Origin: Gemmatimonas sp.
GTDB lineage: Bacteria; Gemmatimonadota; Gemmatimonadetes; Gemmatimonadales; Gemmatimonadaceae
Direction of reading: 5' to 3'
Length of the DNA stretch: 64,000 nt
Assembly (NCBI GenBank): GCA_965279375.1
Contig: OZ257156.1
Location: 5,245,735-5,309,734, forward strand
The notes below the pieces were generated by a model. That model did no database searches. It saw only the letters and a list, made by a program, of their open reading frames with translations, and was not told the DNA's origin. This document shows, in pieces, positions 51,068 to 61,765 of this stretch. Made by a program: the position numbers and the translations under genes. How positions within the stretch are numbered: position 1 is the first letter of the stretch; each line of letters begins with the position of its first letter.

Positions 51068-51552
51068 GCATTGCTCCTGGACACGGCCGGCGATGCGGCC
51101 TGGTGCATTTTCGTGGACCGCGCGGCTGCTCGCGCATCTTCGAAGACGGACTCGGCGATGACGGACGCGCCTCCCGTCGACAGCTCCGCCCAGCGCGCTC
51201 GGACGGCGTCGAGCAAATCGGCTTCGTCGAGCCCCAACCGCTTTGCCTCCACCACCAACTGCTCGACCTCCTGCGACAGCAGCGCCGTGCGCTCCTGCGC
51301 GGTGGCCTCGCGGCCTCCTGCCACGACCGTCCCGAGGCCCGGCATGACCGCCAGCAACCCCTGCCGGGTCAGCTCCGCGACCACCTTGTGCGCGGTATTG
51401 GGATTGATCTTGAGCGCCTGACTCAGCTCACGAACCGACGGGAACGGACTGCCCGACGGCAACTCGCCGGAGACGACGGCTCTGGTCGCCGCGTACACGA
51501 CCTGCCGAAACGGCGACTCGCCCGAGGTCAGGACCACCTGGAATGGAAGCAT
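51064..51552 (-). CDS. GntR family regulator, YtrA subfamily
   Basis: FPSVRELSQALKINPNTAHK wHTH, short C-terminal helices, upstream of an ABC ATPase. Confidence 0.93.
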   Translation of the reverse strand: MLPFQVVLTSGESPFRQVVYAATRAVVSGELPSGSPFPSVRELSQALKINPNTAHKVVAELTRQGLLAVMPGLGTVVAGGREATAQERTALLSQEVEQLVVEAKRLGLDEADLLDAVRARWAELSTGGASVIAESVFEDARAAARSTKMHQAASPAVSRSNA

Positions 51553-51587
51553 GGTGTACTATCTGCACTAGTACACCTAGATGTCAA
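51553..51587 (-). promoter_or_regulatory. YtrA-type operator overlapping a sigma70-like promoter
   Basis: perfect IR GGTGTACTA-N7-TAGTACACC (51553-51577); minus-strand TTGACA (51587-51582), 18-nt spacer, GATAGT, 5 nt, ATG. Confidence 0.8.
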
Positions 51588-51704
51588 GCGTTCGATTCGC
51601 GGGGCTGCGGACCGGTCCTTGCACGACTCTCGCCCGAAGCGCCCAGGATGGGCGTCCCGCGCGACCATTCGACGCGCTCAACTCACCGCATCTTGGAGAA
51701 TCCC

Positions 51705-52064
51705 ATGCCATTGACCCACTTGGAGTTACGTCACATCGAGAAGCGCCTGCACGAGGAGCGCGACCGGATCGTCGCGCAGTTGCACGAGTTCACCGGCCCG
51801 GAAGCCGCCGAGGATAGTGAGGACCGCGCCGGGGACATTTCGCAGTTCCCGACGCATCCGGCGGACCTGGGCACCGATGTCGCGAGTGAGGAGCTGGACG
51901 CGTCCATCGCGACACGGCGATCGGCCGAAATCGCGGAGATCGACGCGGCACTGGAGCGCCTGCGTACGCACCCCGAGATGTTCGGCGTGGACGAGAACGA
52001 TGGTTCGCCGATTCCCTACGCGCGTCTGCAGATCATCCCATGGGCGCGAACGACGGTGGGCTAG
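51705..52064 (+). CDS. TraR/DksA (YteA-like) protein without zinc-finger cysteines
   Basis: HPADLGTD coiled-coil tip, EIDAALERL, FGVDENDGSPIPYARLQIIPWAR; GGAG RBS. Confidence 0.85.
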   Translation: MPLTHLELRHIEKRLHEERDRIVAQLHEFTGPEAAEDSEDRAGDISQFPTHPADLGTDVASEELDASIATRRSAEIAEIDAALERLRTHPEMFGVDENDGSPIPYARLQIIPWARTTVG

Positions 52065-53914
52065 CGCAAAGGCTCTTCTGGCAGAGGCTGCCCGGGAACC
52101 CACGCCACTTCGCGCAGCCGCGCCAGCCACGCGAGCACGCGCGCCTTCTCCACGTGTACGGGACACACGAGTACATCGCCGTCACGCGCCCAGGCGAAGG
52201 CCTCGCGGACGGCGCTGAACTCGTCCGGCGAAACGCTCACGCGCTCCGCCGACACGCCACGCTGTCGCAAGGCGTCCACGAACACGGCCGGCATTTCCCC
52301 TAACGCTCGGCCGCGCAGCATCTGCGGCATCTCTTTGATGATGACGCGATCAAACGTCGTCGCGTCGACCGCCGCATCGACCAGTGCGCGAAGCTGCGTG
52401 TCGTCGCGATTGCCGGCCTGCCCCAGCAGCAGCAGGCGCCGCCGCGCGGGCAATTTATTTGCTGTTTCGCACAGCGCGGCGAGTCCATCCGGGTTGTGCG
52501 CGTAGTCCACCAGTGCCGTCACGCCACCAAAGCGAGAAAGCTGCAACCGGCCGGGATTGTCCGACGGTGACTCGCCAAAGTGTGCGAGCGTGTGGCGAAT
52601 CGCGTCGAGCGGGACACCGCTGGCGTAGGCGACCACACTCGCGCCGACGAGATTGGACACGTTGTGCGGGGCCGCGCCGCCGAGGGCGAGTGGCATGTCG
52701 GCGATCGCGCCGAGGTCGTGCCATCGTCCGTCGATGCACATGGTGATGCGTTCGTCGCGCACGACGGCGGCGAGTCCACCGAACTCTGCGTGCCTTGCGA
52801 GGCCATCGAACTCCGCGCGCGTGCTGAACCACGCCAGTCGCGCCCCCACCGACGGCGCGACCTCCACGAGCGTTGTGTCATCGGCGTTGAGCACGAGCGT
52901 GCCCTCGTGGTCGATCAGCGCGTGCCGAATGATGAGTTTCACGCGCGCGAGGTCGTACAGCGTATGCACGCCGTACTCGCCGAAATGATCGGCGGCGATA
53001 TTGGTGATGATACCCGCGCTCGCGCGCTGCGTGGCCAAGCCGCGCCGCAACATCCCGCCGCGCGCTGTCTCCAGCACAGCAGCTTCCACGCGATCGTCCT
53101 GCAGCACGACGCGCGCGCCGGCCGGCCCTGAGTAGTCGCCGCTATCGAGCTGCGCGTCGTCCACCCACACGCCATCGCTGCAACACCAGCCCGTCGCCTT
53201 CCCCGCCGCGCGCCACATCGCCGCGACCAGTCGTGTCGTGGTCGTCTTTCCGTTTGAACCAGTCACCAGCGTGACAGGGACTTCGCGCACCGCCTCCCAC
53301 GCGATGTCCACTGGCGCGGGGAGTGCAGCCATTGGCCAAACCAGTGCGCCGGCGCCGGTTCCGATCGACACGCGCTCATCATCGAACGCGATCGTGTTGC
53401 CCCGCGTGCGCGCCAGCCGGTACACCTCGGCGAGATGCGGTCGCATAGCACGCTCCTGCTCGAACTGCGCGCTGAGCTTCGCCGCCAACGTCGGGTCGCC
53501 GTACACGTAGCCCTCGATCAAGTGCGAGCGTTCAGCGATCACCCACGACTGCTCCGCAATCTCCGTCGCGGTCATGAGTCCATCGACGGGCGCCGGCACG
53601 AACAACGAGACAGTCGTCGCACCGGGCGCATTGTCAGGAACAATGCACATCTGTTCCGTCGGCCACCGTAGCATGCCGAGTTGCCGCCTTGCCTCCGTTG
53701 CCCACGCATCGTACAGGCGCACGCGCGAGATCGCGGGCACATCGGCAACGTTCACCTCGAGTACTGCGCCCTCGGTGCTGCCATACAGGTTCGCCCCCAT
53801 CAACCGCCGCGAGTCCACGATGCGTGGCGATGGGTACTCCGATTCCGTCACCGGTGCTTCTGTCGAGTGGGGCGCTACGGCCTCGCTGGGCGCATCCGGC
53901 GGAATTGCAGCCAC
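52061..53914 (-). CDS. cyanophycin synthetase-derived Mur ligase (N + M domains, ATP-grasp domain absent)
   Basis: DSRRLMGANLY N-terminus; VTGSNGKTTT, GDYSGP, LETARGG, DHFG, VLNADD, PGR, DYAHN, GNRDD all parallel the neighbouring CphA M domain. Confidence 0.88.
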   Translation of the reverse strand: MAAIPPDAPSEAVAPHSTEAPVTESEYPSPRIVDSRRLMGANLYGSTEGAVLEVNVADVPAISRVRLYDAWATEARRQLGMLRWPTEQMCIVPDNAPGATTVSLFVPAPVDGLMTATEIAEQSWVIAERSHLIEGYVYGDPTLAAKLSAQFEQERAMRPHLAEVYRLARTRGNTIAFDDERVSIGTGAGALVWPMAALPAPVDIAWEAVREVPVTLVTGSNGKTTTTRLVAAMWRAAGKATGWCCSDGVWVDDAQLDSGDYSGPAGARVVLQDDRVEAAVLETARGGMLRRGLATQRASAGIITNIAADHFGEYGVHTLYDLARVKLIIRHALIDHEGTLVLNADDTTLVEVAPSVGARLAWFSTRAEFDGLARHAEFGGLAAVVRDERITMCIDGRWHDLGAIADMPLALGGAAPHNVSNLVGASVVAYASGVPLDAIRHTLAHFGESPSDNPGRLQLSRFGGVTALVDYAHNPDGLAALCETANKLPARRRLLLLGQAGNRDDTQLRALVDAAVDATTFDRVIIKEMPQMLRGRALGEMPAVFVDALRQRGVSAERVSVSPDEFSAVREAFAWARDGDVLVCPVHVEKARVLAWLARLREVAWVPGQPLPEEPLR

Positions 53915-53917
53915 GGG

Positions 53918-56773
53918 TTAGTCGTTGGCGTCGGGGGCGAGGATGACGCCGCGTGCGTCGCGCAGCAGAACCAGATCCTCCGAGGTCGTTGTCCAGCGGG
54001 ACGGCGCTTCTTCGCGAACGGGCGCAGCCTTGGCGGGTTCGATGTCGTCCGCGGGACCTTCTTCCAGCACCGCGGCCCGCGGCACCGAGCGCGCAGCGCG
54101 TGGTGCAGGGATCACCGTCGCATCTGCATCGGGCCGGAAGTTCACGATCTGCTTCCAGCCGCGCGCGAGTGCGTCGGCGAATACGAGCACCAGGTCCGTC
54201 GCACGGGCCATCCGCAGCACCGTGTCGATCGCCTGCTGCTCGTCCACGATCACGGTGATGTGATCGTCAGGGATACCACCCGCTCGCAGCGCCGACGCCA
54301 ACATCTCTGGAATCTCGCGTTCGCCACGTCCACGCAGCGCGTCATCGCGGCGGCAGATGTAGTGATCGAACTGCGCCGCCGCCGCCACGTTGGCGATCGC
54401 GATGATGTCTTCGTCGCGACGGTCGCCCGGCGCAGACAGCACGCACAGCCGGCGTCCCTTGGGCGACATGCGATTGACCAGCTGACAGAGCGCGCTCACC
54501 GCATGCGCGTTGTGCCCGTAGTCGAACAGCACCTTGAACGGATGCTGATCGTAGACGTTGAGCCGCCCCGGCGCCTGGAAGAACGTCGTGTCGAATGTGC
54601 GCAAGCCATGACGAATGTCTTCCAGCCGCACGCCCATGCTGAACGCCATCGCTGCCGCGAACATCGCGTTCTGTACGTTGAAAGTCGCGCGCCCCTCGAG
54701 CGTGGCCGGAATGAGATGCGTCCAGAGCAGCGGGATATGCGCGCCGCGATCGTAGATCGTGATCATCTGTCCGTTCACACCCGCTTCGATCGCACACGCG
54801 CGACCACCCGCGCGAATGTGCTCACGCACCAGATCGTGCGCCGGATCCATCGTCACGTAGCAGACGTGCTTTGCATCCGTGTACGCCGCCATGCGCAAGG
54901 TGAGCGGATCGTCCGCATTGAGCACGGCCGTGTCGGTCGCGATCTCCACCACCGTGCGCTTCACCTCGGCCAACTGCTCTAGCGTGTCGATCCCCTTCTG
55001 CCCCAAGTGATCCGGCTGGATGTTGAGCACCGCGCCCACGTCCACGTGCCGCATCGCCATGCCAGCACGCAGCAAGCCACCGCGCGCCGTCTCCAGCACC
55101 GCCACCTGCACCGCCGGATCGCTGAGCACGATACGCGCCGAGGTCGGTCCGGTCATGTCGCCTTCGACGGTACGCTGCCCATCGATGTACACGCCATCGG
55201 TGGTGGTCAGCCCAACGCGCTGGCCTGCCAGCTTGTGAATGTGAGCGAGCAGTCGCGCGGTCGTCGTCTTACCGTTCGTGCCCGTGATCGCCGCAATCGG
55301 AATGGTGCTCGGCGCGTTCTTCGGGAACAGCATGTCGATAACCTTCCCGGCCACATCACGCGGACGCCCCTCGCTGGGGGCCATATGCATGCGAAAGCCG
55401 GGCGCTGCGTTCACCTCACAGATCGCGCCACCGATGTCCTTGTACGATTGCGTGATGTCGGGCGTGAGGAAGTCCACGCCACCCACATCGAGTCCGATCG
55501 CCTGAATCGCGCGCACGGCCATCTCGGCATTGTCCGGGCTCACGACATCGGTCATGTCGGTGGCCGTGCCGCCCGTGGAGAGATTCGCGGTTAACCGCAG
55601 GTAAACATTCTCTCCCGCCGGCGGCACGCTCTGAGGTGTGTAGCCCAACTTGCCCAACAGCCCCATCGCCTGCTCGTCCAGCTCGATCTGCGTGAGCACC
55701 TTCTCGTGGCCAATGCCGCGACGCGGATCGGTGTTCACCACGGCGACCAGCTGCTCGATGGTGTGCACACCATCGCCCACCACCTTGCCCGGCTCGCGCT
55801 TGGACACGGCCACCAACTCGCCGTTGACCACCAGCATGCGATGATCGTGCCCCGTGATGTAGCTCTCCACGATCACGCTGCGCGAAATCTCCGCCGCGCG
55901 CGCAAAGCCTGCCGTTACTTCTTCTGAGTTGGTGAGCGAGATGGACACGCCGCGTCCATGGTTGCCGTTGTACGGCTTGGTCACCACGGGATAGCCGATG
56001 CGCTCTGCAGCAGCGACCGCACGCTCCGCACTCTGCACCAACCGCTGCTTGGGTACCGGCAGCCCCAAGCGCGACAAGATGTGATTGGTTTCTTCCTTGT
56101 CGCTCGCCAGATCCACGGCGATGTGTGGCGTGCGTCCGGTAATCGTTGCCTGAATGCGCTGCTGGTTGCAGCCGTAGCCCAACTGAATGAGGCTCTGCTC
56201 GTTGAGGCGCATCCACGGGATGTCGCGCGCTTCGGCGGCGTGCACGATGCTCGCGGTGCTGGGCCCCAGCGCGCGTCGCTGCGCGTACCGAATGAACGAA
56301 TCACGACGCGCCGCAAGATCGAAGCTGGCGTCGGCATCGGCCGGTCGCAGCTCGGCGGGCAGCAGATGATGCAGCAGGTCGAGTGCGACGTCAGCGGCCT
56401 CGAGCCCAACATCCTCCTGCTCGTATTCGAAGACCACGTCGTACACACCCGGCCGCGCGGTTTCACGCGTCTTGCCGAAGGTGACCTTCACGCCGGACAC
56501 GTTCTGCAACTCGATCGCCACATGCTCCAGCACATGACCGAGCCACGTGCCTTCGTCCTCCGTCATGCGACGCACGAACCCACCGGGCTCGCCATACGAG
56601 CAGCCGTGTTCCTGCAGGCCCGGCAGCGCTTCCAGCAGCGACGCGATGAATGCGTCACCGAGGCGACGCGTCGGCCATGCTTCCAGTTCGCCCAGGTCGA
56701 GTTCGAGCCGAATGACGGGGAAGTGCGCGTAGTGGCTAGGCCCAACGTAGACGGAGCGATCGAGGATCTTCAT
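53918..56773 (-). CDS. cphA: cyanophycin synthetase CphA1
   Basis: N domain (HGCS...GHVLEH), LGPST, ATP-grasp (KPYNGNHGRGV, GHDHR, NLSTGG, EVNAAPGFRMH), Mur domain (ITGTNGKTT, ETARGG). Confidence 0.97.
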   Translation of the reverse strand: MKILDRSVYVGPSHYAHFPVIRLELDLGELEAWPTRRLGDAFIASLLEALPGLQEHGCSYGEPGGFVRRMTEDEGTWLGHVLEHVAIELQNVSGVKVTFGKTRETARPGVYDVVFEYEQEDVGLEAADVALDLLHHLLPAELRPADADASFDLAARRDSFIRYAQRRALGPSTASIVHAAEARDIPWMRLNEQSLIQLGYGCNQQRIQATITGRTPHIAVDLASDKEETNHILSRLGLPVPKQRLVQSAERAVAAAERIGYPVVTKPYNGNHGRGVSISLTNSEEVTAGFARAAEISRSVIVESYITGHDHRMLVVNGELVAVSKREPGKVVGDGVHTIEQLVAVVNTDPRRGIGHEKVLTQIELDEQAMGLLGKLGYTPQSVPPAGENVYLRLTANLSTGGTATDMTDVVSPDNAEMAVRAIQAIGLDVGGVDFLTPDITQSYKDIGGAICEVNAAPGFRMHMAPSEGRPRDVAGKVIDMLFPKNAPSTIPIAAITGTNGKTTTARLLAHIHKLAGQRVGLTTTDGVYIDGQRTVEGDMTGPTSARIVLSDPAVQVAVLETARGGLLRAGMAMRHVDVGAVLNIQPDHLGQKGIDTLEQLAEVKRTVVEIATDTAVLNADDPLTLRMAAYTDAKHVCYVTMDPAHDLVREHIRAGGRACAIEAGVNGQMITIYDRGAHIPLLWTHLIPATLEGRATFNVQNAMFAAAMAFSMGVRLEDIRHGLRTFDTTFFQAPGRLNVYDQHPFKVLFDYGHNAHAVSALCQLVNRMSPKGRRLCVLSAPGDRRDEDIIAIANVAAAAQFDHYICRRDDALRGRGEREIPEMLASALRAGGIPDDHITVIVDEQQAIDTVLRMARATDLVLVFADALARGWKQIVNFRPDADATVIPAPRAARSVPRAAVLEEGPADDIEPAKAAPVREEAPSRWTTTSEDLVLLRDARGVILAPDAND

Positions 56774-56778
56774 GGGGC

Positions 56779-57609
56779 CTAGTCGTCGGAAGCGAAAACG
56801 GCGGCGCCGGTCGCCTGCCGTGTATGCAGGTTGAACGTCGAGCCTTGGGTGAGCACATGCACCGTCACGCCAGTCAGCGTTACTGCTTCACCTGGCTTGG
56901 CCTCTGCGATGGACGAAAACTCCACGCGCGACGGATCGACCACGGTCACCGCGCCGGTGCCCTGCACTTCGAGCGTTTCGTCAGGACCGATGAACGCCGC
57001 CGTGTCTTCATCCACGCCGAGTCCGACGGCGAACGGATTGTAGGCCAGTGCCGTAAGCAGGCGGCCGAGTCGATCTCGTTGACGGAAATGCTGATCGACG
57101 ATGACACGGTTGGTTAGACCGAGTCCGGCGCACATTGTGACCATACCAGCGCGCGGCGTGGAGCCGTCTTCGCCAAAGGCGATCATGTGCTCGCTCAGGA
57201 ATGCGGCGCCGGCGCTGGTGCCCGCGATGTGTACGCCGGCCGCGTTGCGAAGACGCAGCAGCTTGGCCACCGGGGTCCCGCCGAGCGTGGCCGTCAGCTT
57301 GAGCTGGTTGCCGCCGGTGAGGAATACGCCGGTGGCGCTGGCCAGCCAGTCCAGCCAGTCGCTGTCATCACAATCGCTGCGGCGTTCGAAGCGGAGGGAC
57401 TTGGCGAACCGCACGCCGAATTTGGCGAAGACCCGCTCGTAGTAGGTCCCCATGTCCGGTTCGCTGGACGCGGTGGGGATGACGGCAATGCGTGCATCCG
57501 CTCCGCCGCTGACGGCGACGAAGCGTTCCAGGATAGAGTCGTCCGCGAGCTTGCCGCCGATCGGGATGATCCAGCCGCGCGCGACGTCAGGAATGGGGCG
57601 TGAAGGCAT
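56779..57609 (-). CDS. cphB: cyanophycinase
   Basis: IPTAS, TGGNQL, GTSAGA (Ser nucleophile), DQHFRQRDRLGRL, GVDEDT; immediately upstream of cphA. Confidence 0.95.
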   Translation of the reverse strand: MPSRPIPDVARGWIIPIGGKLADDSILERFVAVSGGADARIAVIPTASSEPDMGTYYERVFAKFGVRFAKSLRFERRSDCDDSDWLDWLASATGVFLTGGNQLKLTATLGGTPVAKLLRLRNAAGVHIAGTSAGAAFLSEHMIAFGEDGSTPRAGMVTMCAGLGLTNRVIVDQHFRQRDRLGRLLTALAYNPFAVGLGVDEDTAAFIGPDETLEVQGTGAVTVVDPSRVEFSSIAEAKPGEAVTLTGVTVHVLTQGSTFNLHTRQATGAAVFASDD

Positions 57610-57686: not shown

Positions 57687-58871
57687 ATGCTGACCCTGCT
57701 CCGTAACGCCAACGTCTACGCCCCCGAGCCGCTCGGCCTCCGCGACCTGCTGATCGGCGGCGAACGCGTGCTCTGGATTGGCCCGGCGCTCGACGCCCTT
57801 CCCACGTCGCTCGGCGTCTCCGTCGTGGATCTGGGCGGGCAGCGTGTGATTCCCGGCCTGATCGATGGACATGTGCATCTCACGGGCGGCGGCGGCGAGT
57901 CCGGGCCTGCGTCACGTGTGCCCGCGCCGGAGCTCACGCGCTACACGCTTGGCGGTGTGACCACGGCGATCGGCGTGCTTGGCACCGACGACGTCACGCG
58001 CACGACAAGCGCGTTGGTGGTGGCTGCGCGTGCGCTCGTGGCAGAGGGGTTGAGCGCGTGGTGTCATACAGGCGGCTACCATGTGCCGCTGACCACGCTC
58101 ACCGGCACGGTGCGCGGCGATATCGCGCAGATCGATCGCATCATCGGCGTGGGCGAGGTCGCCATCAGCGATCATCGTTCGAGTCAGCCGACGCTCGACG
58201 AGCTGCTACGCATCGCGTCGGAAGCGCACGTGGCGGGGCTGATGTCCGGAAAGGCGGGCATCGTCCATCTGCATCTGGGCGACGGCGAGCGCGGACTCTC
58301 ACTCGTGCGTGAGGCGATCCGCACCAGCGAGATTCCGGCGCGCGTCTTCAATCCCACGCACGTCAATCGGCGCAAGGCGCTGTTCGAGGAGGCGCTGAGT
58401 TTGGCGCGCGAAGGCTGCTTCGTGGACATCACCGCGTTTCCCGTGGCTGATGGCGAAGACGCATGGGGCGCCGCCGACGCACTCGTGCGCTATCTCGACA
58501 GCGGTGCGCCGACGGCGCAGGTGACCGTCAGCTCCGATGGCGGCGGCTGTCTGCCCACCTTCGATGCGAATGGGCGCGTGGTGCAGATGGACGTCGGCGA
58601 TTCCCGCGCGTTGCTGGGCACCATCGCCGAGCTGCTGCAACGCGGATTGGCACTCGAGCGCGTACTGCCCGCCTTCACCAGCAATGTGTCGGACTTGCTG
58701 CGCCTGCCGAGTAAGGGCCGAATCGCGGTGGGCGGAGACGCGGATCTCGTCGTGCTGAACGCGGCCCACGAGGCGACCCATGTCATGGCGCGCGGCGCGT
58801 GGCATGTGCGTGACGGCACCGCCATCCGGCGCGGCACGTTCGAACCACCCCGGGATCCGCAAGTCGCTTGA
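57687..58871 (+). CDS. iadA: isoaspartyl dipeptidase (beta-aspartyl peptidase)
   Basis: PGLIDGHVHLTGGGGESG, LGTD, TGGY, GEVAISDHRSSQP, HLHLG, PTHVNR, SSDGGG. Confidence 0.95.
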   Translation: MLTLLRNANVYAPEPLGLRDLLIGGERVLWIGPALDALPTSLGVSVVDLGGQRVIPGLIDGHVHLTGGGGESGPASRVPAPELTRYTLGGVTTAIGVLGTDDVTRTTSALVVAARALVAEGLSAWCHTGGYHVPLTTLTGTVRGDIAQIDRIIGVGEVAISDHRSSQPTLDELLRIASEAHVAGLMSGKAGIVHLHLGDGERGLSLVREAIRTSEIPARVFNPTHVNRRKALFEEALSLAREGCFVDITAFPVADGEDAWGAADALVRYLDSGAPTAQVTVSSDGGGCLPTFDANGRVVQMDVGDSRALLGTIAELLQRGLALERVLPAFTSNVSDLLRLPSKGRIAVGGDADLVVLNAAHEATHVMARGAWHVRDGTAIRRGTFEPPRDPQVA

Positions 58872-58896: not shown

Positions 58897-58969
58897 CCGC
58901 ATTCGCGATTGCAGGCAAGTCGTGGTCGCGAGATGACACAGAACAAGACATAGGTGCTGGTCGTTGTGT

Positions 58970-59170
58970 GCCGCCTCTTGGGTGCACGACGCGAAGAGGG
59001 AACCCGGTGCGATTCCGGGGCGGCCCCGCCGCTGTGAGGGAGGACGACGAAGTCGAGAGCCACTGCAGCCAGTTCGGTGCGGGAAGGCGGCTTCGAAGGA
59101 TGATTCCCGAGCCAGAAGACCTGCCAGAGACCCGGAGTCCGCGCACACCCTCGAGGGAGGACGTGCCGGG
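58970..59170 (+). ncRNA. cobalamin (B12) riboswitch
   Basis: GAAGAGGGAA-CCCGGTGCGATTCCGG-GGCGGCCCCGCCGCTGTG ... GCCACTG ... GGGAAGGC ... B12 box GAGCCAGAAGACCTGCC; P13-like CCT-CGAGGG-AGG. Confidence 0.93.
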
Positions 59171-59240: not shown

Positions 59241-59347
59241 GCCGCGACCAATCATCGGTCGCGGCGATGGCGCAGCGTCCTCGGGGGTGTGCGTTCCACG
59301 CGCAGTTGAGATGCACTTGAGTGGTCTCACCCCCAATGGAGCTGCAG

Positions 59348-61765
59348 ATGACGACCATCGCCCCCGAATTGATTTCGCTAACGCCGTACGAATTGCCGCC
59401 GCTCGCGTCGCGAGCCACCGCCGTCATCAAGCGCGACGGCCGCACGGCAGCGTGGGACCCGGAGCGCATCACGCGCGCGATCGCGCTGGCGTTCTTCGCC
59501 TCGCGCTACGACAACGCACCCAACCCCAACGCCGACAACGCCGCCGCGCGCTTCGGTCTCGGCTTCAGCGACTTCTCCGAAGTGCTCGCGATCACGCAGC
59601 TCGTGGTCAACACGGTCCATCGGAAGGTCGAGACGCGCACGCCGACGGTCGAAGAGATTCAGGACATCGTCGAGATGATGATCGCGGCGCGTGGCCACTG
59701 GGACATCGCCAAGCGGTTCGTGATCTACCGCGCCACGCGCGCGACGCAACGAATGATCGCGCACGACGAGAACGGCATGCAGGACTACATCTTCTTGTCG
59801 CGCTACTCACGCTACCGCGACGACCTGGGTCGCCGCGAAACACCCGCCGAAGCATTCACGCGCGTGATGGACATGCATCGCACGCACTTCGCCGATCGCC
59901 TCGATGCACCGGTGACCGGCCTTGGCAATCGCACGCTGCGTGCGCTGATCGACGAGACTGAAGCGGCGCTGCAATCGCGCGCCATTCTTCCGTCGATGCG
60001 TTCGCTGCAGTTTGGCGGTTCGGCGATCGAGGCGAACAACGCGCGCATGTTCAACTGCGCGTTCACGCACATGAATCGCCTCGATGCCTTCAAGGAGGCA
60101 TTCTTCCTGCTCCTCTCGGGAACTGGCGTAGGCTTCAGCGTGCAGCGGCATCACGTCGCGCAGCTCCCCGCGTTCCCGTTGCGCGCCGCAGAGAACGAAC
60201 TGCCGGTGATGCATCACACTGTGCCCGACCAGCTCGAAGGGTGGGCGGACGCGCTCGACGTGCTCATTCGCAGCTACCTCGAAGGCGTGAAGGTCGAGTT
60301 CAACTACAGCGAGATTCGTCCGCGTGGCGTTCCGCTGCGTACGTCGGGCGGTCGCGCGCCGGGACATCTGCCGCTCAAGAAGGCGCTCAGCGCCGTCGAG
60401 CGCGTGCTCGAACAGGTGCCGGGACGTGCGCTTCGCCCAATCGAAGTCTACGACATGATGATGCATGTCGCGGTCGCCGTGCTCTCGGGTGGCATTAGAC
60501 GCTCGGCGACGATCTGCCTCTTCTCCGCCGACGACGACGAGATGGCCGCGGCGAAGACCGGCAACTGGTTCGAGACCAATCCGCAGCGTGGCAAGTCGAA
60601 CAACTCCGCGGTGCTCATCCGCGATCGCGTGCAGGAGCGCGACTTCTCGCGGCTGTTCGAATACCAGAAGGAGTTCGGCGAGCCCGGGTTCTATTTCGTG
60701 GATGACGCCGAGTACGGTGCGAATCCGTGCGTGGAGATCGGCCTGGCGCCCGCGCTCACGGTGGACGAAACGACACAGCGCCAACTGGCAGCACACGGCA
60801 AGCGTGACGCGCAAATCGGCGAGCGGTTGTCCGGCTGGCAGATGTGCAATCTGACGACGATCAACGCGGCCTCGTGCGACAGCGCAGAGACGTTTTACGA
60901 CAGCTGCCGTGCGGCATCGTTGTTGGGCACGCTGCAGGCGGCGTACACCGACATTCGCTACTTGGGCCCCGTCACGCGCGTCATCAATGATCGCGAAGCG
61001 TTGTTGGGCGTGAGCATCTGCGGCATTCTCGAGCGTCCGAGTTTGTTGCTACAGGCAAACGTGCTGGAGCGCGGTGCACAGATCTGCCTCGACACGAACG
61101 CCGCAATCGCCGAGCATTTGGGTATCTCGCCGGCCGCGCGTATCACGTGCGTGAAGCCGGAGGGCACCGCGAGTCTCGTGCTTGGTGCCGCGTCCGGCAT
61201 TCATCCGCATCACGCGCGTCACTACTTCCGCCGTGTGCAAGCGGCGCGCACCGAGCCGCTGTATCAGTGGTTCAAGCAGCACAATCCGCACATGACCGAA
61301 GCCTCGGTGTGGGACCCCGAAACGACGGACGTGATCACGTTTCCCGTCGCGGCCAACGCCGATGCGATTCTGCGCGCTGACGTCGGTGCGGTGCAGTTTC
61401 TCGAGTATGTGCGTCTCGTTCAGGAACACTGGGTGTGCGCCGGCCGTCGTCACGAGCAGTACAACCCCGGGCTGCAGCACAACGTGTCCAACACCGTCAC
61501 CGTGCGCGACGACGAGTGGGACGCCGTACACGATTTCATCTGGAGCAATCGACAGTACTTCGCGGGCATTTCGCTGCTGCGCGAAACGGGCGACAAGATC
61601 TACCGGCAGGCGCCGCGTGAAGAAGTCACGACCGAGGCGGATATCGCGCGATGGAACACGTTGCGCTACACGCCGGTGGACTACACATCCCTGCTCGAGA
61701 GCGACGATCGTACCACGCTGGCTGATGTGATCGCGTGCGCAGGCGGGGCCTGCGAGATCGTTTAA
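59348..61765 (+). CDS. nrdJ: class II (adenosylcobalamin-type, monomeric RTPR-like) ribonucleotide reductase with N-terminal ATP cone
   Basis: ATP cone VIKRDG; LPSMRSL, NCAF, GVGF, GGIRRSA, GEPG, finger loop NPCVE, CNL, KPEGT, C-terminal CAGGAC; GGAG RBS. Confidence 0.88.
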   Translation: MTTIAPELISLTPYELPPLASRATAVIKRDGRTAAWDPERITRAIALAFFASRYDNAPNPNADNAAARFGLGFSDFSEVLAITQLVVNTVHRKVETRTPTVEEIQDIVEMMIAARGHWDIAKRFVIYRATRATQRMIAHDENGMQDYIFLSRYSRYRDDLGRRETPAEAFTRVMDMHRTHFADRLDAPVTGLGNRTLRALIDETEAALQSRAILPSMRSLQFGGSAIEANNARMFNCAFTHMNRLDAFKEAFFLLLSGTGVGFSVQRHHVAQLPAFPLRAAENELPVMHHTVPDQLEGWADALDVLIRSYLEGVKVEFNYSEIRPRGVPLRTSGGRAPGHLPLKKALSAVERVLEQVPGRALRPIEVYDMMMHVAVAVLSGGIRRSATICLFSADDDEMAAAKTGNWFETNPQRGKSNNSAVLIRDRVQERDFSRLFEYQKEFGEPGFYFVDDAEYGANPCVEIGLAPALTVDETTQRQLAAHGKRDAQIGERLSGWQMCNLTTINAASCDSAETFYDSCRAASLLGTLQAAYTDIRYLGPVTRVINDREALLGVSICGILERPSLLLQANVLERGAQICLDTNAAIAEHLGISPAARITCVKPEGTASLVLGAASGIHPHHARHYFRRVQAARTEPLYQWFKQHNPHMTEASVWDPETTDVITFPVAANADAILRADVGAVQFLEYVRLVQEHWVCAGRRHEQYNPGLQHNVSNTVTVRDDEWDAVHDFIWSNRQYFAGISLLRETGDKIYRQAPREEVTTEADIARWNTLRYTPVDYTSLLESDDRTTLADVIACAGGACEIV

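Follow-up and report, generated by a model that had tools for sequence, protein, structure and literature searches.

A cyanophycin synthetase paralogue without the ATP-grasp domain, encoded directly behind cphA in Gemmatimonas, belongs to a conserved and apparently uncharacterised family

The genome of Gemmatimonas sp. contains, in a stretch of 64,000 nucleotides that we refer to as the window (GenBank assembly GCA_965279375.1, contig OZ257156.1, positions 5,245,735 to 5,309,734), a gene directly behind the cyanophycin synthetase gene cphA whose product is a CphA paralogue lacking the ATP-grasp (G) domain. This G-less family is real, conserved and apparently uncharacterised. We consider it about an even call whether the protein acts as an ATP-dependent amide ligase in trans on the cyanophycin of the neighbouring CphA1, with altered specificity. 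In the published accounts consulted, cyanophycin is made by CphA1 alone or by the re-polymerisation of dipeptides (CphA2). The gene and its parts are as follows.

52061..53914, minus strand: G-less CphA paralogue, 617 residues; N-like domain, Gcore remnant and M domain (Pfam, TIGRFAM, BLASTP, structure model, overlay)
53444..53827, minus strand: shortened N-like domain, residues ~30–157 (hhalign, model, overlay on CphA1 from residue 1)
53333..53443, minus strand: Gcore remnant, first helix and beta-hairpin, residues ~158–194, equivalent to CphA ~170–209 (hhalign, model)
53285..53332, minus strand: short linker in place of the ATP-grasp domain (hairpin-to-P-loop distance)
52568..53284, minus strand: Mcore (residue map and family motif counts; CphA1 roles from PMC9427784 and PMC9262961)
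52103..52567, minus strand: Mlid, boundary approximate (residue map and family motif counts)

Pfam detects only Mur_ligase_M (residues 217–428) and Mur_ligase_C (455–584) in the G-less protein, both above the gathering score, and finds no match to the ATP-grasp families or to PF18921; the neighbouring CphA matches several of the former and also the latter. The CphA1 family TIGR02068 gives 352.4 bits against a curated cut-off of 850, with the match confined to residues 209–585, and the Mur ligase families TIGR01085 and TIGR01143 give 93.9 and 49.4 bits against cut-offs of 257.3 and 288.6. Identity to the neighbouring CphA is 36% over residues 212–584 by BLASTP, and the N-terminal likeness is not significant in this pairwise comparison. 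Profile–profile alignment with hhalign pairs the N-terminal part of the family with residues 1–209 of CphA1 (probability 92.9%, E 3.6e-7), through the same two segments that the original prediction, made from the letters alone, had named. Together with the structure overlay below, this bears out its claim of a diverged N domain, with PF18921 unmatched. The N-like domain consists of two strands, a helix, two strands and two helices, and the C...HxxEH hydrolase motif is absent, as had been claimed. In CphA1 this site (Cx19HxxEH) makes primers; most CphA1 proteins have it, though not all. Only the first ~40 residues of Gcore remain, which agrees with the prediction that just the first element of the G domain is kept. 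The distance from the [LI]GxG hairpin to the P-loop is 300 residues in CphA and 35 in the G-less protein; the absence of ATP-grasp stands, with a net loss of 265 residues that is close to the ~280 claimed. Every motif quoted in the original prediction is present, including those of the Mur domain (GSNGKTT, GDYSGP, ETARGG, DH, DYAHN and GNRDD). An ESM Atlas search with residues 25–215 provides leads only, with top matches of 0.85–0.89 to unnamed clusters and one of 0.75 to a cluster in which PF18921 is assigned to 57% of members.

An AlphaFold model of the protein (predicted local distance difference test score, pLDDT, 94.2; predicted template modelling score, pTM, 0.93) overlays the N and Mcore domains of TeCphA1 as a single body: residues 29–454 fit 7wae_C with Z 38.5 and a root-mean-square deviation of 2.8 Å over 412 residues. 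The overlay on SuCphA1 (7lgq_A) gives Z 35.0 and 3.8 Å over 557 residues, and the best Mur ligase, a MurE, reaches Z 24.6. The N and M domains are thus predicted to keep the CphA1 geometry and, since the cyanophycin analogue sits between N and Mcore in CphA1 (PMC9427784), to retain the polymer cleft between them. The CphA1 dimer interface is Gcore (162–234, 306–324 and 400–487; PMC9427784), of which the G-less protein has lost most, and a hetero-tetramer with CphA, at least in the canonical form, is therefore a weaker proposal than when it was first made.

Set against known systems, the G-less protein shares with CphA1 (TIGR02068; 7LG5, 7LGQ, 7LGN, 7LGM, 7WAE) the N fold, the first Gcore helix-hairpin, a complete M domain, the ATP/Mg and catalytic residues, the predicted N–M geometry and the operon. 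It differs in lacking the ATP-grasp G site, the C...HxxEH site and most of the dimer module, and the family is altered at both substrate sites of the M domain. CphA2 (7TA5, 8FXH) is likewise a reduced derivative of CphA1 that retains a single active site and whose N domain is non-catalytic, but the reduction is the opposite one: in CphA2 the G domain is active and the M domain truncated and inactive (PMC10273328), whereas the G-less protein has a full M domain and no G domain. Pfam matches and motif counts thus agree with the earlier description of the two as opposite reductions. MurE-type ligases (TIGR01085; 1E8C, 2WTZ, 4C12) have the Mur central and C-terminal domains, the P-loop and presumed acyl-phosphate chemistry in common with it. 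The N-terminal region, however, overlays the CphA N domain, the overlays score ~24 for MurE against 35–38 for CphA1, and the gene is linked to cphA in the loci examined. This context and the modelled CphA-type N domain point away from UDP-MurNAc-peptide as a substrate. By sequence the protein is in kind the M-half of a CphA1, and by family membership it falls outside CphA1, CphA2 and MurE/F.

The architecture is conserved across a family. A homologue search that covered lengths of 339–1080 residues, in which full-length orthologues could have surfaced, returned as its best 120 homologues proteins of 492–618 residues with Mur domains only, one of which adds an unrelated Pfam domain. Several are labelled Gemmatimonadota, and their names are Mur ligase family protein, cyanophycin synthetase, UDP-N-acetylmuramyl tripeptide synthase or hypothetical protein. 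A profile search of representatives at 50% identity listed at least 150 matches, with more than 120 clusters of this architecture; carriers among the matches listed include Steroidobacteraceae, Luteimonas lutimaris, Lysobacterales and another gammaproteobacterium, and further two Acidobacteriota, a Planctomycetaceae metagenome-assembled genome (MAG) and Plesiocystis pacifica. We aligned the query with 120 near-full-length representatives (n = 121); a further 30 rows were set aside as partial, split, long or fused. The aligned members are 550–620 residues long and come from several phyla; the hairpin-to-P-loop junction is 32–46 residues (median 35) in the 113 of 121 where it is measurable, and HxxEH occurs in 0/121. 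Of 50 diverse members scanned with Pfam, none has an ATP-grasp match and all have Mur_ligase_M and Mur_ligase_C, one Mur_ligase_C match lying below the gathering score. Orthologues retaining the G domain, which would have spoken for a deletion in one strain, are thus absent from the 121 aligned and the 50 scanned. Some relatives have unusual forms. P0129 carries a DUF559 domain ahead of the matched region; a few members, such as L023:6965-8935, have an in-frame insert in the N-like domain that on reading resembles a translated palindromic repeat; and P0131 (972 residues) has two Mur domain sets with the G-less family protein at its C-terminal end, which could be a read-through or an assembly fusion with the end of cphA. 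In one relative, G038, the G-less gene is split over three frames.

A tree of M domains (107 rows) places the 33 family rows in one clade (support 99, by a quick method) and outside the group formed by 49 of 50 CphA1 and nine betaproteobacterial rows (support 92). Two models both reject a clade that would unite the family and its partner CphA1s (39 rows; approximately unbiased test p-AU 0.00046 and 0.00014), and hence the G-less gene is an old paralogue and not a recent duplicate of the adjoining cphA. Over 33 pairs, pairwise identities in the family M domains are correlated with those in the partner M domains (Spearman 0.69), as kinship alone can yield, with medians of 47% in the family against 70% in the partner, so the family diverges faster. 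This faster divergence and the broken gene in G038 are what could be said for a truncated copy of the adjoining cphA that is in decay or confined to one strain. The number and uniform build of the homologues, the fixed junction length and the tree refute that explanation, which we regard as scarcely credible.

The reading frame itself is intact over 617 residues, with a putative GTG start 3 nucleotides after the cphA stop, as originally described. The database copy of the protein starts at ATG39 (579 residues). Certain homologues reach residue 1 and conservation begins at about residue 25, which favours an upstream GTG. The G+C content at third codon positions is 0.80 in the G-less gene, 0.80 in cphA and 0.78 in cphB, and the window genome holds a single copy each of the G-less gene and cphA. 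Upstream of the cphA/G-less pair lie cphB and the divergent iadA.

53918..56773, minus strand: full-length CphA1, 951 residues, with N, G and M site motifs intact (TIGR02068, 1134.6 bits, cut-off 850)
53921..53968, minus strand: motif conserved at the C-terminal end of partner-clade CphA1s, a candidate docking peptide (tail comparisons)
56779..57609, minus strand: cyanophycinase cphB (TIGR02069, 241.4 bits, cut-off 126.6)
57687..58871, plus strand: isoaspartyl dipeptidase iadA, divergently transcribed (TIGR01975, 406.6 bits, cut-off 331)

A survey of co-occurrence with cphA, cphB and iadA, the check that had been proposed for this gene, reveals tight linkage to cphA elsewhere. In the window's phylum we scored 301 genomes, with four candidates in each; a match at E ≤ 1e-30 was obtained in 86, of which 69 carry the G-less gene. 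The N+G part of CphA was searched in 80 of the 85 non-window genomes, and all 80 have a CphA. In each of the 63 carriers among them it is 65–87% identical to that of the window; of the five carriers outside this search, four were confirmed as loci, and in the fifth a frame of CphA size lies next to the gene. The 17 genomes without the G-less gene have only a distant CphA in 15 cases (43–53%), one of 56% in another, and one of 69% in G141, where the contig ends 305 bases past cphA. In all, 69 of the 70 phylum genomes with the window's CphA1 clade carry the gene. We fetched 22 loci. In 20 of them the gene follows cphA immediately, in one a second, inserted cphA precedes it, and in the last it is found on a contig separate from cphA; apart from that separate-contig copy, the G-less gene was not found without cphA in the genomes searched. 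The Luteimonas family (Xanthomonadales) shows the same: of 200 genomes scored (one further was not), 54 had a match and 52 carry the gene. In 50 of these the table places it immediately after cphA on the same contig; of the other two, one is split across contigs and one lies beside a cut-off cphA. The two matched genomes without it have the betaproteobacterial tandem cphA type instead, so that all 52 genomes with this CphA1 clade are carriers. As the genomes are kin and not independent, these counts amount to no statistical test. Eight loci of named carriers have a full cphA and cphB alongside, which are upstream on the same strand in six and convergent in two. Across loci, cphB is present in nearly all and iadA in many. 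No further conserved neighbour gene was found across 30 loci, where the recurring clusters are mostly opposite-strand frames of known genes or local neighbours in three or four loci. In L104, L105, L106 and L134 both CphA1 clades adjoin, and in one of these the second cphA sits between cphA and the G-less gene.

The M domain retains a complete set of catalytic residues. In CphA1, K499, T500, T522, E558, R731 and H748 (PMC9427784) and D585/H586 (PMC9262961) bind ATP/Mg or are needed for activity; the equivalents in the G-less protein are K223, T224, S246, E282, R456, H473, D309 and H310. Mcore further has R285, K326 and N421, and Mlid keeps D470, N474, R503 and R534-G-R536. We counted motifs in 129 G-less family sequences and 50 CphA1. 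The catalytic motifs are nearly invariant in the family (P-loop in 128, E-x-ARGG in 126, DH in 125, D-x-x-HN in 125 and RGR in 127 of 129). Around both substrate sites the family departs from CphA1: GD..GP.S occurs in 2/129 against 38/50, RGG..RRG in 127/129 against 2/50, G-E/D-x-G following DH in 103/129 against 0/50, N-P/A-GR in 106/129 against 4/50, GDRR in 7/129 against 47/50, and a one-residue longer loop preceding RGR in 84/129 against 0/50. In the window's protein the family-specific residues of Mcore are G266, R268, R291 and G-E-Y-G 312–315, and in Mlid the second Arg of GDRR is gone. The Ser of GD..GP.S presumably contacts the polymer, and we take two Mlid loops to select the incoming amino acid, as in MurE.

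These observations suggest a mechanism for which we infer substrate, product and direction. The N-like domain would hold a cyanophycin chain in the N–M cleft, Mcore would phosphorylate an Asp carboxylate with ATP, and an amino acid held by Mlid would attack the acyl-phosphate. Lacking the G site, the protein would be unable to extend the Asp backbone, and lacking HxxEH it would be unable to cut primers, which leaves the tailoring or capping of chains, either with a non-Arg side chain or with a residue at positions that CphA1 does not serve. The preference for amino acid or acceptor probably differs from that of the Arg-adding M domain of CphA1. The original idea of a side-chain ligase, perhaps for a residue other than Arg, is partly supported in that an intact ligase site and altered substrate-site residues would fit it.

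If its chemistry were that of the CphA1 M domain, the protein would be an additional ligase for Arg (or Lys), one that accelerates side-chain addition, completes Asp positions left without Arg or supplies beta-Asp-Arg starters. All catalytic residues as well as R285 and R503 are kept, the N–M geometry is predicted to be kept, and an acceptor rich in Asp would be well matched by the added Arg residues around the polymer site. We nevertheless consider an extra Arg ligase unlikely, for Mlid motifs that almost every CphA1 has are altered throughout the family, the partner retains its own M site and its primer-making N motif, and a close relative of the partner works alone. The suggestion that the G-less protein makes beta-Asp-X primers is likewise weakened by the Cys/His/Glu/His motif that the N domain keeps in 8/8 partner CphAs.

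The partner itself is complete. The N, G and M motifs are intact in all eight partner CphAs examined, and the closest solved relatives are TmCphA1 (7LGN) and AbCphA1 (7LGM), with which the partner has a clade-specific Mlid loop in common. Each of these makes cyanophycin alone in E. coli, the product of TmCphA1 being insoluble with 94% Arg (bioRxiv 2023.01.09.523336). A partner with a dead site that the G-less protein replaces was rejected on these grounds, and the G-less protein is taken to be an accessory.

The partner clade carries a conserved C-terminal tail motif, a D-x-R-G core after a variable Pro/Ala-rich linker. The strict pattern occurs in 21 of 30 partners and in 0/74 other CphA-like proteins; the D-x-R/K-G core occurs in 29 of 30 tails. 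A further 6/6 partners also have the motif. The motif has no meaningful match in the Protein Data Bank (PDB). This tail, the near one-to-one linkage with one CphA1 clade and, in the window, a gene start a few bases past the cphA stop would be expected if the protein had a regulatory or structural role, in which it would bind ATP and polymer and dock on CphA1, perhaps via the tail, to tune chain length or granule formation, with catalysis secondary. Near-invariant catalytic residues point instead to an enzyme, most of the Gcore dimer module is absent, and the tail may bind CphB, IadA or CphA itself. G332 has the tail without the G-less gene and the partner in L024 has the gene but no tail, which also weakens the notion that the tail exists solely to dock the G-less protein. 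A regulatory or structural role is in our view rather improbable.

The cphB and iadA genes of these loci raise the prospect of a role in mobilisation. Mur ligases are reversible, and the protein might run in reverse with ADP and phosphate (Pi), stripping side chains, or act on a breakdown product or other small acceptor; its substrate sites do differ from those of CphA1. The position of the gene behind cphA, its occurrence only together with cphA in the genomes searched, bar the separate-contig case, and a polymer-holding N domain in predicted CphA1 geometry speak for action on the chain, and a mobilisation role strikes us as distinctly improbable.

Several points weigh against a tailoring ligase of altered specificity. 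Changed Mlid loops are tied to amino-acid choice by analogy with MurE, and the extra Arg residues of the family could equally bind an acceptor of greater acidity, Arg remaining the donor. The faster divergence of the family M domains could mean relaxed function. TmCphA1, the partner's closest solved relative, works alone, so the partner may need no helper, and G332, a single-contig genome, has iadA-cphB-cphA of the partner clade without the G-less gene.

A broader reading is that two enzymes together make a chemically different cyanophycin, with CphA1 building the chain and the tailoring ligase adding a non-Arg side chain or an end cap, in numerous bacteria of soil and water (Gemmatimonadota, Xanthomonadales, Acidobacteriota, Myxococcota and Planctomycetota), and also with the second G-less clade of Actinomycetota and Chloroflexota described below; the CphA1 tail perhaps tethers the ligase. 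We put this forward tentatively, as possible but doubtful. A third architecture, beside one large CphA1 clade in nearly all genomes examined and in several phyla, implies an unrecognised step. Our literature searches, which did not extend to supplements, turned up no description of the G-less family; genes of this kind may be listed in the supplements of PMC10206079 and PMC10687191. Should the ligase alter side chains, it would lend itself to tuning polymer composition and solubility, which is relevant to cyanophycin production, and a stand-alone M domain offers a setting for the study of amino-acid choice. The database names given above can skew surveys of cphA copy number.

Other variants of CphA were seen in the course of this work. 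Actinomycetota and Chloroflexota have a second clade of G-less CphA, in which the N domain is joined straight to M with no Gcore remnant. Its profile matches CphA1 1–174 (probability 95%), and it forms its own clade (support 98, likewise by the quick method); joining it with the family as one clade has support of 37 and 0. Its gene is found near cphA but on the other strand in 8 of 11 loci (L029:6383-8221, L031:8246-10003, L032, L037, L048, L057, L066, L069, L084, L085 and L087), and the L057 protein has an extra C-terminal TPR domain. Tetrasphaera is reported to have a longer cphA copy and a less expressed shorter one (PMC10687191), the latter possibly of this actinobacterial G-less type. A 532-residue clostridial G-less form (L088:6638-8236, Sarcina MAG) apparently keeps the same Gcore hairpin as the window's family; its N-part profile match is weak, and cphB-cphA lies on another contig of that genome.

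Tandem cphA copies have been noted before (PMC10687191). The betaproteobacterial tandem cphA/cphA' resembles the present pair in having a second CphA-like gene beside cphA and an apparent division of labour, but both copies keep G-domain sequence, unlike the G-less protein. We presume that the names CphA3/CphA3' apply to this pair. In the tandem pairs (7 + 9 sequences), one copy has an N hydrolase motif but degenerate G and M sites, and the other keeps G and M without the N motif, suggesting from these motifs that the pairs divide primer making and polymerisation. The N-motif copy comes first (L038, L054, L073, L080-L083, L091, L071, L137 and L138). In the other CphA1 clade of the window's phylum, a protein of 330–400 residues lies between cphA and cphB (L116-L125 and L134, e.g. 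L117:6579-7565). It consists of a CphA N domain (PF18921) and ~180 unassigned residues, has HxxEH in the three inspected, and is a possible stand-alone primer-making hydrolase.

Finally, two further features flank the locus in the window. On the 3' side, a DksA/YteA-like open reading frame (ORF; 51543-52064, plus strand; TIGR02890, 58.7 bits, below the cut-off) converges on the G-less gene, and the stop codons overlap by 4 bases. Beyond iadA, a cobalamin riboswitch (58941-59142, plus strand; RF00174, 115.9 bits) precedes an ORF of 814 residues (59321-61765, plus strand) whose sequence, as we read it, resembles a B12-dependent ribonucleotide reductase.

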